Of a stretch of DNA of 53,352 nucleotides, positions 24,574 to 43,609 are shown piece by piece; position 1 is the stretch's first letter, and each line of letters opens with the position of its first letter. Both the position numbers and the translations under genes were made by a program. The stretch is from Alphaproteobacteria bacterium (GTDB taxonomy: Bacteria; Pseudomonadota; Alphaproteobacteria; Rs-D84): positions 1 through 53,352 of the forward strand of contig JAFXFG010000006.1 of assembly GCA_017520675.1 (NCBI GenBank), given 5' to 3'. The notes beneath the pieces were generated by a model. The model saw nothing but the letters and a program-made list of their open reading frames with translations, ran no database searches and was not told where the DNA came from.

Positions 24574-24599
24574 GTTTAGGAAATAATTTACGCACACCG

Positions 24600-25568
24600 C
24601 TACATTTTATAAATTCGCAGGAACGAAACATTTGATGTGCCTGTACTGCCTGAACCGCCATCCCCACCATCGATTTTTATGTTGTATGTTGTGCCAGAAC
24701 GTATTGCACCACCGCCCCCACCACCGCCATATGCAGTTACGGTTTCGCCACCACAATTATAAGATATGTTTTTACCGCCTTTCCCGCCTGTTGCAGTTAC
24801 AAGTTCTGAACAATCAAAAGTTGTGCATGATGTAACATTGCCACCATCACCGCCAGAATCAGTTGAACCATCTTGTCCAATATTTCTTTCAACAATATCA
24901 GAATGTGATCCGCTATTAATCCCAACTTCTTTATTTGCTGGGATATTTGGTGCCCCGCCACCGCCTCCACCATTAACATAAATAGCACTGCTACTGCTAG
25001 CCCCATAAAAAACAGCCCTGGATGTTTGGGTTTGTGTAAAATTATTACCGCCACCGCCTGCGCCATAATCAATATTAGTGATTCCTGTTGCTGTGTTTTT
25101 AGAAGTTATTGCACAAATATTCCCAACGCCACCATTTGCGCGCCATACCTTGTCATTTACAACCAATATTGAATCCACACCCGATGCACCACCACCAAAT
25201 GCCCCCGTATAGTTACCAGATGAGTTTAAATTAACGCCGCCTGCATTTCCGTCCCCGCCACGCAGTGCATAAACAGTTGTGGCCTCTGATATGCTAAACA
25301 AGGCAGATATTGTTTTGACGAAATCTAAATCTACCGCTTCCAAGCAATATTCATTCATTGTGCCAACACCACCACGCAATTCTGCACGATAGCACCCAGG
25401 TTGCAAAACAATTTCATTACAGGTATTAAAATTAGTTGCTTCAAAAACTAATTCTTCACTGCCGGTCAGTACACATTGTCCTGCTGGCACATTATCAATT
25501 GCCTGATATATATCACCTGTTGTTGTTTTAAAAAATAAAGTTTGTAATAAAATTAACGGTACCAACAT
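24600..25568 (-). CDS. Glycine-rich adhesin-like protein, paralog 2
   Basis: ELRGG, YALRGGDG, GGGASGVDS, ANGG, YGGGGGGG and GGDGGSGSTGTSN blocks shared with the upstream paralog. Confidence 0.7.
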   Translation of the reverse strand: MLVPLILLQTLFFKTTTGDIYQAIDNVPAGQCVLTGSEELVFEATNFNTCNEIVLQPGCYRAELRGGVGTMNEYCLEAVDLDFVKTISALFSISEATTVYALRGGDGNAGGVNLNSSGNYTGAFGGGASGVDSILVVNDKVWRANGGVGNICAITSKNTATGITNIDYGAGGGGNNFTQTQTSRAVFYGASSSSAIYVNGGGGGGAPNIPANKEVGINSGSHSDIVERNIGQDGSTDSGGDGGNVTSCTTFDCSELVTATGGKGGKNISYNCGGETVTAYGGGGGGGAIRSGTTYNIKIDGGDGGSGSTGTSNVSFLRIYKM

Positions 25569-25572
25569 TGTA

Positions 25573-26526
25573 TTATCCTATTTTAAATATTTTAATAAAG
25601 CTGTCGTTTGATGTGCCTGTACTGCCTGAACCGCCATCCCCGCCATCAAAACAGTCTGTTCCACAATATGGGTCTGAATAACCGTCCTTGCAAAATTCAC
25701 TCCATGGATACATACAAATTCCACCACCGCCACCACCACCATATGAAATTGCTGTTTGTCCATTACAGTTAAATGTTGTGTTTGTCCCCCCACTACCACC
25801 GTACCCCGTATTTTTATTCATGGAATTTTCTTTGGTGTTTGTAATATCTGCACCGTTTTGTGCGATTGAATCTGCAGATGCGCCATTTCCACCATCAGCA
25901 CACTTGAAAAAAACTCCCGTTACCTTCGGACCATATTTCATGAACAACCCACTTGCAGAACCGGCCCCGCCATAACATGCTTTAGAAAGTGAAGAGTTGC
26001 CTGCGATTTGACCAAGTGCATTAATTCCATTCAAACTAAATCCTAAGCATCTGGTGCCAGTACCCCCGTTTGCACGAATTGTACGATTACCAACAACCAG
26101 TATTGAATCCACGCCCGACGCACCGCCACCTGGGATTTGATGAATGTTCACTGTTGCGCTATTGTTGCCATCTCCGCCACGCAGTGCATAAAGCGTTGTC
26201 GCTGTGTTTAATTTAAATATGTTTGATGTTATATCACCCAGTGCATTTTTTGTCCCTGTTCCCGAACTACATCGATATGGCTTCCCACCTGTGCCACCGC
26301 GCATTTCCACGCGATATATTCCCGCAGGCAATTCAAAACTTTGACAAGTGTTAATTGTATTTTCTTCATAAACCAGTGTTTCGGACGCGTCAAACACCCC
26401 ACCGCCCACAGGCATAACTGCAACATGATATATTTCCCCATCTGCATTTTTTATATGCAACGCAGGCGAAGTTAATTGTTGGGCATGCGCGACTATTTCA
26501 ATATCACCGATATGTAAAACTGGCAT
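25573..26526 (-). CDS. Glycine-rich adhesin-like protein, paralog 1
   Basis: Strong AGGAGG RBS. Same Gly-rich blocks, with Cys-rich variable loops. Confidence 0.75.
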   Translation of the reverse strand: MPVLHIGDIEIVAHAQQLTSPALHIKNADGEIYHVAVMPVGGGVFDASETLVYEENTINTCQSFELPAGIYRVEMRGGTGGKPYRCSSGTGTKNALGDITSNIFKLNTATTLYALRGGDGNNSATVNIHQIPGGGASGVDSILVVGNRTIRANGGTGTRCLGFSLNGINALGQIAGNSSLSKACYGGAGSASGLFMKYGPKVTGVFFKCADGGNGASADSIAQNGADITNTKENSMNKNTGYGGSGGTNTTFNCNGQTAISYGGGGGGGICMYPWSEFCKDGYSDPYCGTDCFDGGDGGSGSTGTSNDSFIKIFKIG

Positions 26527-26550
26527 TGTGTCCTCCTATATTTTGCAATT

Positions 26551-26790
26551 AAAAAACCGCAATGGAAATCATTTGCGGTCGGGGAGTTCACAAATCACCT
26601 AAAAGTCTGATTCCGCCAGCCTTCGGGAAACCCTGTTGTATAAACCGACGGCCCCCCGACCTTTTACGGCTGGTGGGGATACAATAAAAGACGCCTCCGC
26701 GTCTTTATTCTTCTGCGGATTCAGCACCGTTTTGCGATGCCGCTTTTAGGAGAGCTTGTGACAGCCCCGAACCAAATTCCCATCTGGTTC
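26551..26790 (-). ncRNA. C4-antisense-like RNA module A (a1b1 leader, cloverleaf 26578-26660, terminator)
   Basis: Closing stem GTCGGGG/CCCCGAC; P2 CCGTCGG/CTGGCGG; P3 AATCA/TGATT with loop CTTTTAGG complementary to upstream CCTAAAAG. TTGTGA is complementary to upstream TCACAA. Confidence 0.7.
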
Positions 26791-26798
26791 TGTTTCAA

Positions 26799-26828
26799 AC
26801 TATATCATATATCCTATTTTTTTGTAAA
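26799..26828 (-). promoter_or_regulatory. Sigma70-type promoter for module A
   Basis: TTTACA-18-TATAGT with a TG extended -10. Confidence 0.6.
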
Positions 26829-26855
26829 TATAAAATTTATCAACACACAAAGAAT

Positions 26856-26887
26856 AAAAAACACCGGCGGGGAAGAATGCCGGTGTT
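26856..26887 (-). terminator. Intrinsic terminator separating modules B and A
   Basis: Minus strand reads AACACCGGC-ATTCTTCCCC-GCCGGTGTT-TTTT. Confidence 0.75.
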
Positions 26888-26944
26888 CTTTTCTGTGTTT
26901 TGGCACAGAAACTGTCTATGTGAAAAAAATCACATTATTTATAG

Positions 26945-27190
26945 AAAAAACCGCCGCAGAAAAAAATGGCTGTCGGGGTGTTAGAAAAAACGTCAACAAT
27001 TCCGTTCCCGTCGGCCTTAGGGGACAACGCCCCCTGTTTTATAACCGACGGCACCCCGACAAAAGGGGTTAAGGGTACAAAAAATAGCGCCTCGCCGCGC
27101 CATCTATGCACGGATTTCCAGTATGATTTTTTCTCATACGGATTGTTGAAAGGCTTTTCTAAGGCCCCGAAAACGCATCCCTGCGAATTC
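26945..27190 (-). ncRNA. C4-antisense-like RNA module B (a1b1 leader, cloverleaf 26972-27060)
   Basis: GTCGGGGTG/CACCCCGAC; CCGTCGGTT/GGCCGACGG; GAACG/CGTTT with loop ATTGTTGA complementary to upstream TCAACAAT. TTTTCTAA is complementary to upstream TTAGAAAA. Confidence 0.7.
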
Positions 27191-27197
27191 AAGTCAA

Positions 27198-27226
27198 ATT
27201 ATAACATATGTTTGTACAGATTTCAA
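27198..27226 (-). promoter_or_regulatory. Sigma70-type promoter for module B
   Basis: TTGAAA-17-TATAAT with a TG extended -10. Confidence 0.75.
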
Positions 27227-27229
27227 GTG

Positions 27230-28258
27230 CTAAAATACTAAGCGCAACCCCGCAGATATAAATGGTGTTCGTGATGTAATCCCCCCTGAAATCCATCCGT
27301 CAACAAATTCGCTGTACTTGTATCTGAACGAAGCAACCACCATATGGTCGGCAAAGTCATTAATATTTTTTTGCCACACACCTGTATCTGAAAACATATA
27401 AGTCATTGAAACACTATATTTTAGCAAATCATAACTAACCCCTGTGCCAACGACAAAGCCATCAGAAACAGGTCCAATTGGATTTTTATCATAAATCACG
27501 CGTGCAGTCGTGCCCCAAATCCAACTGTTATATTGCAGGTTCATCCCCAGTGATGCCTGTGCGCGCCAATCTGCTGTAACCCCTGGGGTATAAACTTCGT
27601 TATCAAAATCGTCAGGATTTTTCATAAAAGACACGCCAACAGAATATGCTGTTTTAACCTTACCGCTTGAATTTTTAATTTTTAAACCGCCATCAATTGC
27701 CCAGTCATAGTTATCTGTTAATCCTGCAACAGATATTCCGTACTGTACACCAGAAACCGGCGCAGACGCGACATTTGCCCGCAAAGAATTACTGCGTCCT
27801 GATGTAAGTGTTGTGTCTGCGATAACAGGGCCATCTGGGATAATCTTTTCGTTGAACAGTGGTCTGTCATTAATGCGCAATCCGCCCACATCTGGCAATC
27901 CTAAGCCCAGTTTTCGTGCGATTGAATCTGTAAAACCAACCTCAATCCTGCCCAAAGATTTTGATTCGACAAACGCAAATGTTTCGCGTGAAAAGTTCCC
28001 TTTATCCAATGCTGCCTGATCCATTGCATACACCAGACCAAATTTATATTCTGTATTTGCGGCATATGTTATTTGTCCGCGCACACGCCAATCCCCGATA
28101 AACAGTGGTGATTCCAAGTCTGGTTCAATCATACCAACTGTACCATATCCGGTCAATTTAACGGAAATATTATTGTAATCAAATTGCAACGCGTGTGCGA
28201 ACTGTGGCAATACAGCACAAACCGCCACATATCCCAGTATTTTAATTGTTCTTTTCAT
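27230..28258 (-). CDS. Outer-membrane porin (alphaproteobacterial type)
   Basis: Signal peptide from MKRTIKIL (28258), FVESKSLGRIEVG strand pattern, C-terminal Phe (GLRLVF). Confidence 0.7.
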   Translation of the reverse strand: MKRTIKILGYVAVCAVLPQFAHALQFDYNNISVKLTGYGTVGMIEPDLESPLFIGDWRVRGQITYAANTEYKFGLVYAMDQAALDKGNFSRETFAFVESKSLGRIEVGFTDSIARKLGLGLPDVGGLRINDRPLFNEKIIPDGPVIADTTLTSGRSNSLRANVASAPVSGVQYGISVAGLTDNYDWAIDGGLKIKNSSGKVKTAYSVGVSFMKNPDDFDNEVYTPGVTADWRAQASLGMNLQYNSWIWGTTARVIYDKNPIGPVSDGFVVGTGVSYDLLKYSVSMTYMFSDTGVWQKNINDFADHMVVASFRYKYSEFVDGWISGGITSRTPFISAGLRLVF

Positions 28259-43337: not shown

Positions 43338-43400
43338 AAAAAAATTATAGGCACGAAATCCCCGCCCCTGCAATAAAAAACTTTTTTTAGAAACAAAAAA

Positions 43401-43595
43401 TGATATAATTCCTTTTGACAACAGTAAGTGTTGTTGGGTGTGGAAACCCAAATTCTAGGTTGTGCTGGTATTTACCGGCACAAAAAAACTCCAATGCGCA
43501 AGTTGGAGGGCATTTGAATATATCGAATAGAATGCACTATTTTCCTAGAATAATAGTTTCCAACCTCCAACCACCTGTTGTTCAGGTGTTTTTTT
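43401..43595 (+). ncRNA. C4-antisense-like RNA module C (extended -10, a1b1, cloverleaf 43502-43571, terminator 43572-43595)
   Basis: TGaTATAAT; GTTGGAGG/CCTCCAAC; GCATT/AATGC; ACTATT/AATAGT with loop CCTAGAAT complementary to ATTCTAGG (43452-43459). GTTTCCA is complementary to TGGAAAC (43441-43447). Ends CACCTG-TTGTT-CAGGTG-T7. Confidence 0.68.
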
Positions 43596-43609
43596 GTATA
43601 GGAGAGATT

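Follow-up and report, generated by a model that had tools for sequence, protein, structure and literature searches.

A gene-less C4-like unit within a family of about 40 two-box leaders in an alphaproteobacterial genome

Two C4-like units lie between a conserved gene and two glycine-rich reading frames

The window, i.e. the whole 53,352-nucleotide stretch of DNA that was analysed, contains two C4-like units (B and A) on the minus strand, located between a conserved 384-aa gene and two glycine-rich open reading frames (ORFs). The 384-aa gene is present in 147/151 genomes of the genus. Unit B starts with the promoter TTGAAA-17-TATAAT (27226-27198), which had been proposed in a sequence-only reading of this DNA and is indeed present, with an 11/12 match to consensus and an extended TG. 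Target boxes a (TTAGAAAA, 27162-27155) and b (TCAACAAT, 27149-27142) together span 27142..27162 and precede an 89-nt C4-like core (26972..27060) with a 9-bp closing stem, two hairpins and a weak match to sRNA-Xcc1. The corresponding anti-boxes are exact complements of b and a, with b' (27000-26993) located in a loop and a' (26988-26981) in a linker. An internal terminator (26945..26973), not mentioned in the sequence-only reading, overlaps the closing stem. It carries one mismatch at 26971 in this assembly, with an energy of -4.2 kcal/mol with the mismatch versus -10.4 kcal/mol. A 60-bp module comprising a hairpin and a bidirectional terminator follows at 26855..26914, here with no gene before it. 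It had been claimed that no credible ORF follows B, and none with a ribosome-binding site was found; an 85-codon TTG frame (27192-26935) runs through B itself.

Unit A has a promoter of its own, as previously suggested (TTTACA-18-TATAGT, 26799..26828), followed by boxes a (TCACAAG) and b (CCTAAAAG) within 26743..26761 and an 83-nt C4-like core (26578..26660; b' at 26605-26598, a' at 26594-26588). The A terminator (26551..26579) has two basal pairs in common with the core closing stem. Behind A lies a 317-aa glycine-rich ORF (25573..26526), with AGGAGG at 26537-26532, and then its 322-aa glycine-rich paralogue (24600..25568), both on the minus strand. The 317-aa ORF displays a weak match, under the cut-off, to the ALK/LTK glycine-rich domain.

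The spacing between B and A is 394-400 bp. The two units are alignable over their length, in agreement with the common scaffold noted earlier. Their boxes differ, again as noted, and constitute separate codes: neither unit pairs with the other. Folding compared to shuffled sequences gives z = -7.35 for B and -5.06 for A, while the nested box match of 16 bases in B and 14 in A was reached by 0/1000 shuffled leaders. Promoter-like hits across the whole region show no excess (9 versus 9.0 in shuffles); promoters similar to those of A and B are found upstream of other family copies. In both units, a hairpin resembling a terminator also separates the boxes from the core. This was set aside as the output terminator, as the main subfamily has no good U-tract at this position when inspected by eye. 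No Rfam match was obtained within the region at the gathering score.

A and B belong to a large chromosomal leader family

When the 1.1-Mb genome was searched with an iterated profile, 26 matches scored E<1e-4, compared with a single match (E=2.6) in the reversed-genome control. A covariance model built from 71 cores gave 41 matches in the genome at E<=0.1, including one that reads as a tRNA and one that reads as a truncated unit. A and B are two of about 40 family copies in this genome. A third unit in the window (43400-43600, plus strand), missed by the covariance model, belongs to a short subfamily (a=GGAAAC, b=TTCTAGG) and precedes a 312-aa ORF with a signal-peptide-like start. Across the order, which is probably the reduced-genome Rs-D84 (PMC12306168), the covariance model has matches in 91/101 genomes. 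Records with the B-type motif that carry a name come from gut assemblies and are labelled Alphaproteobacteria or proteobacteria. Two B-specific patterns gave 0 matches to metagenome contigs. A pattern search of viral contigs returned a single match, a compact unit on L076 located before an 82-aa ORF and, by eye, ~1.5 kb from a terminase-like ORF, hence a possible phage link for the leader family. A literature search, covering few subscription journals, found no description of the family.

Most units lie within ~60 nt of ORFs with signal-peptide-like starts, and many of the driven ORFs belong to one family whose ends are constant and whose middle varies. The driven proteins are predicted to be secreted on the basis of these starts. 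Paralogous predicted secreted proteins of 206-505 aa, in which both termini are conserved and the central part is hypervariable, are each found behind their own coded leader on G000 contigs C1, C5, C11, C12, C22, C26, C27, C41 and C46, and look like a variable surface antigen family. Some downstream ORFs are small and HTH-like. Units at G000:C15:19820-19928 and C23:3965-4074, as well as L028, precede non-surface genes, and the non-surface ORFs behind units include what we take to be phospholipase-D-nuclease-like, possibly restriction-related and methyltransferase-like proteins.

Conserved leader anatomy supports two alternative folds

All 26 annotated units possess a 5' hairpin, boxes a-b and a core of 64-89 nt, with the order a-b...b'-a' and similar spacing retained throughout, and 25/26 have a recognisable terminator. 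In the core, which is tRNA-like and sealed by a closing stem, b' occupies a loop and a' lies in a linker. Its first base is an invariant G (71/71), and a conserved ATA(C/A)AACA linker has no known role. Covariation analysis of 71 sequences revealed 164 two-sided cells for the core (0/500 shuffles; slid controls 11-45), with the core loop-stem partly misaligned in this set (79% paired). The terminator shows 38 two-sided cells in 71 sequences (0/500 shuffles; slid controls far lower), and core and terminator have two alignment columns in common.

In the free leader, a-b is predicted to be paired to b'-a', with a core probability of 0.00 in 26/26 units. Isolated cores are predicted to fold, with a' and b' mostly unpaired, and blocking a-b leads to a predicted core probability of 0.99 for A and 1.00 for B. 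There is good support for a leader with two states. As to its putative trigger and sign, blocking a-b, which a trans RNA would do, flips the core in 14/26 models that end at the core's end and in 3/25 full-length models; modelling of the switch and of its sign is therefore weak.

Comparison with known systems

The P1 and P4 RNAs repress. The annotated P1 region consists of a1 (7 nt), a 7-nt gap, b1 (8 nt) and a 77-nt C4, followed by a2/b2 at the icd start; in P1 C4 itself, b' belongs to a stem-loop, and the 7-nt linker that leads to the closing stem contains a'. The leader family is similar to C4 of P1/P7 (RF01695; c4-a1b1 motif) with respect to the promoter, a1-b1 leader, ~80-nt RNA, b' loop and a' linker, and all 26 annotated units have the upstream a1-b1 target in their own leader. 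In contrast to C4, the family has an intrinsic terminator that overlaps the closing stem, and its ~40 chromosomal copies precede small HTH genes and genes for predicted secreted proteins rather than an antirepressor. No C4 match was found in the region at the Rfam gathering score or at E<=10, and the leader-family model R1 matches neither P1 C4 nor P4. A search of 98 units for downstream a2/b2 sites gave 13 matches for a versus 8.6 expected (P=0.064), and 4 versus 4.6 for b. The leader family is C4/CI-like by layout and not a member of RF01695. From the accessible parts of the published accounts, C4-type specificity is set by few bases (PMC5320573) and C4/CI-type RNAs are processed by RNase P (PMC5499578, PMC5320573). 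RNase P RNA is encoded in the present genome.

The leader family may resemble the P4 CI and Gifsy-1 IsrK/STnc1160 systems with respect to a leader-derived RNA, an upstream target site and premature termination. As far as the available part of PMC4825925 describes it, a processed P4 leader RNA pairs with the upstream seqA and controls premature termination. The A leader scores 20.4 bits with isrK, a weak match given the 50-bit threshold. Unlike P4 CI, which is single copy compared to ~40 copies here, the leader family has no seqC equivalent, and its predicted sign may be opposite.

The best Rfam match to both cores is sRNA-Xcc1 (RF02221), with 35 bits (E=0.00038) for B and 25 bits for A, below the 53-bit gathering score. 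Five tandem sRNA-Xcc1 homologues are described in a Xylella island, ~381 bp apart (PMC12189769, in part), which is similar to the 394-400 bp between B and A, and sRNA-Xcc1 also occurs upstream of symE in integron cassettes (bioRxiv 2025.06.18.660453, in part). The accessible portions of these sRNA-Xcc1 descriptions contain no box code. A further multi-copy example is Acinetobacter baumannii Group 1, which comprises 21 chromosomal C4-like sRNAs. Their specificity loops vary, and they appear to be released from longer transcripts by processing (PMC5320573). In contrast to the leader family, Group 1 as portrayed in the available part of that paper has no leader a-b target, combinatorial code or overlapping terminator, and neither surface-gene coupling nor gene-less stacks.

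Units carry individual two-box codes

No (a,b) pair occurs twice among the 26 annotated units, and the best pairing partner of every core is the leader of the same unit (26/26). Near-identical paralogues differ at box a, with compensation, and some cores that share b and differ in a are 94-97% identical. Boxes a and b are reassorted among units. Code sharing was assessed for 103 units from eight genomes; this set went from 107 to 103 rows after nine had been added, with four compact units lacking a parsed code dropped and most short-subfamily units left out. Pairs with the same b also share a in 0/13 cases within genomes and in 15/39 cases between genomes (Fisher p=0.011), the latter figure being inflated because between-genome pairs include orthologues. 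Within-genome permutation against independent assortment gave P=0.24 for code exclusivity, which is not significant. Interior gene conversion could reshuffle codes without selection and produce the exclusion pattern. The same code is found to drive unrelated genes in different genomes, as A's code does in G019.

An exception outside the 0/13 count is provided by two short units, G000:C20:2453-2552 and C14:4815-4914 (L228, L229), which share their upstream code and have no credible downstream gene. The C14 b' is mismatched, hence the C20 core matches the C14 leader better than the C14 core does, and the two possibly form a natural trans pair.

The sequence-only reading had inferred an array of specificities from A and B. 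Distinct codes are indeed abundant, spread over ~40 dispersed leaders, and the notion that this particular pair is a purpose-built array did not hold. It had also proposed a genome-wide two-box search for a target of B. This returned none: nowhere else in the assembly (95% complete, 46 contigs) does B's code occur.

B is best read as a leader with its gene missing

The strong terminator proposed to close B (26856-26887) is real, and is part of the 60-bp post-gene module rather than a feature of B as such. The module is repeated in 24 genome copies and consists of a TTTCTGTG-N5-7-CACAGAA hairpin plus terminator. Among the other 23 copies, 18 sit 3-21 nt past the stop of a long ORF, four lie close to the end of a contig, and the remaining copy is at a distance of 57 nt. 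Eight copies close genes that are driven by coded leaders. The module is also found after genes of two variable families. Its fusion to an inverted half-leader at C26:21377-21467 suggests a point of recombination.

The other B-type units, located in 16/256 genomes, drive an ORF within 60 nt in 20/20 cases, and the B-type pattern detected no gene-less unit among these 256 other genomes of the genus; L131 was considered as a candidate and rejected due to the presence of a short ORF. Given the post-gene nature of the module and the genes behind all other B-type units, B is best read as a leader plus 3' module with the gene missing. Of the earlier suggestion that B is either a trans RNA or a silent spare, the absence of a cis gene stands, with B itself appearing to be an ordinary leader minus its gene. 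Compared to its two closest relatives, B has kept its boxes and the loop-stem is compensated. The CGTT hinge in B was considered as a sign of decay, and this was ruled out as it is compensated by GAACG.

We assign a probability of about one half to a model in which the units are code-specific C4-like attenuators, with B an emptied cassette that is retained as donor of a coded RNA with no resident target. Unaided, a-b is predicted to zip onto b'-a', such that the core is unfolded, the terminator forms and the gene is off. The core would be cut out of the leader, probably by RNase P, and the mature RNA could then occupy a-b of a new transcript with the same code, allowing the core to fold and weakening the terminator. 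The proposed trigger for the family is thus the unit's own processed RNA, and the outcome would be a code-specific and self-reinforcing control, the sign of which is uncertain. B has likely lost its gene and is predicted still to release a C4-like antisense RNA, which could act only in trans on leaders with the same a/b code. It may supply RNA for its own code to incoming or unassembled cassettes, preserving a code that has been retired, much as the tandem stacks described below may do. This makes B a test case, as a unit able to work only in trans.

The main alternative, less probable, is that B is a neutral remnant following a recent deletion that removed the gene between leader and 3' module, in which case it may be transcribed with nothing depending on it. 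The direct junction of the B leader with the post-gene module, the presence of genes behind the 20 other B-type units, the lack of a target for its code in the assembly and the terminator mismatch at 26971 are all compatible with such an origin. Broken half-units also exist at G000:C8:1600, C26:21377 and C33:11858, with promoter and a-b kept and the core wholly or partly gone. Against a neutral remnant, B is intact in 4/4 other strains. In these strains, derived from 4 studies and none of them flagged as a possible source, single contigs span B, the module and the A promoter with no gene inserted. All four have the family base at 26971 and an intact terminator, in line with the earlier expectation that B is not decayed. 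The strains are ~98% identical, too short a time for the persistence of B to show selection. The presence of the family base in other strains also speaks against the mismatch being a specialisation for trans action.

The strain comparison proposed earlier, which was to look for gain, loss or box switching, thus finds B kept gene-less in each of the four strains and the whole segment absent from a relative. In G166, the 384-aa gene is located directly against rlmN and the segment from ~24574 to 27230 is absent, so that the whole segment is accessory. The same 384-aa gene/rlmN joint is also present as a minor contig in the strain data. Synteny through the 384-aa gene gave no guidance. Neighbours differ widely among the 384-aa gene loci listed, with one relative (L045) containing a unit of another type, with a gene.

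Gene-less units recur in tandem stacks

Stacks of gene-less, separately promoted and differently coded units recur in this genome and its relatives, which bears out that aspect of the sequence-only reading. Behind tRNA-Val at G000:C5:14172-14832 (L230, L241) lies a tandem set of three short units, each with its own promoter and its own code. Two are gene-less, while the last unit lies before a ~62-aa HTH-like ORF. The number of units at the tRNA-Val locus is 1 in G019, 2 in G166 and 3 in G000. The gene-less unit common to G000:C5 and G166 is 95.2% identical between these two species, in contrast to 83.9% and 79.2% for the adjoining genes (61% at third positions). Such conservation of the unit points to selection or recent exchange, and is a further argument against neutral remnants.

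Similar stacks are seen in G140, G074, G125, G206 and G097. At the L246 locus (G206:C11), at least four units of mixed subtypes are stacked; only the last of them appears to have a gene, an HTH-like ORF located behind it. Gene-less tandem stacks with different codes occur in at least 7 genomes, and at at least 4 of 30 loci in one set; this recurrence in several genomes again disfavours B being a neutral remnant. Stack neighbours differ in box-a code wherever this is readable, and the code of an upstream gene-less unit can be one that drives the gene alone in other genomes, as if old leaders are kept when new ones are inserted. Unlike B, the stack units could feed a gene by read-through.

Wider implications and remaining alternatives

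The family-wide barcode and the gene-less stacks are of greater interest than the A/B pair itself. The arrangement suggests that, in an uncultured order, a phage immunity device has been scaled up to address variable surface genes in a combinatorial manner across the whole chromosome. A more far-reaching and doubtful proposal is that these reduced-genome gut Alphaproteobacteria have domesticated the C4/CI immunity module of phages as dozens of RNA switches that are orthogonal and self-reinforcing. Their recombining two-part barcodes would allow surface proteins to vary heritably between on and off without any inversion of DNA. Gene-less units and stacks would then constitute a polar memory of retired barcodes, pre-setting arriving cassettes of the same code. 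The RNA/target pairs, dozens of which exist naturally on a single scaffold and are predicted to be orthogonal, are potential regulatory parts, testable in E. coli.

We consider it unlikely that the family represents a cis-only two-state attenuator of the riboswitch or protein-sensing type, in which the boxes are merely a drifting long-range helix and B is a dead leader or a spare for recombination. Conservation of both folds in cis, the conserved ATA(C/A)AACA linker without known role, the non-significant exclusivity test and the lack of a2/b2 sites are in favour of such an attenuator. It does not readily account for the presence of two short boxes in loop and linker exactly as in P1 C4, the box-a differences with compensation between near-identical paralogues, or the different box-a codes of readable tandem neighbours.

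Code-specific attenuation thus remains the preferred reading of the family, and for B it is very unlikely that the RNA was co-opted as an ordinary sRNA on unrelated mRNAs, by analogy with the Acinetobacter C4-like proposal, or that B encodes an 85-aa peptide: three loose two-box matches exist outside the unit (C18, C25, C44), but the relaxed pattern gives 165 matches, such that loose hits are expected by chance, and the 85-codon frame, with its stop 20 nt before the 60-bp module as for real genes, has no Shine-Dalgarno, starts at approximately the predicted transcription start, yields a product without family match, is open in 1/21 B-type cores and contains a 1-nt deletion in one strain.
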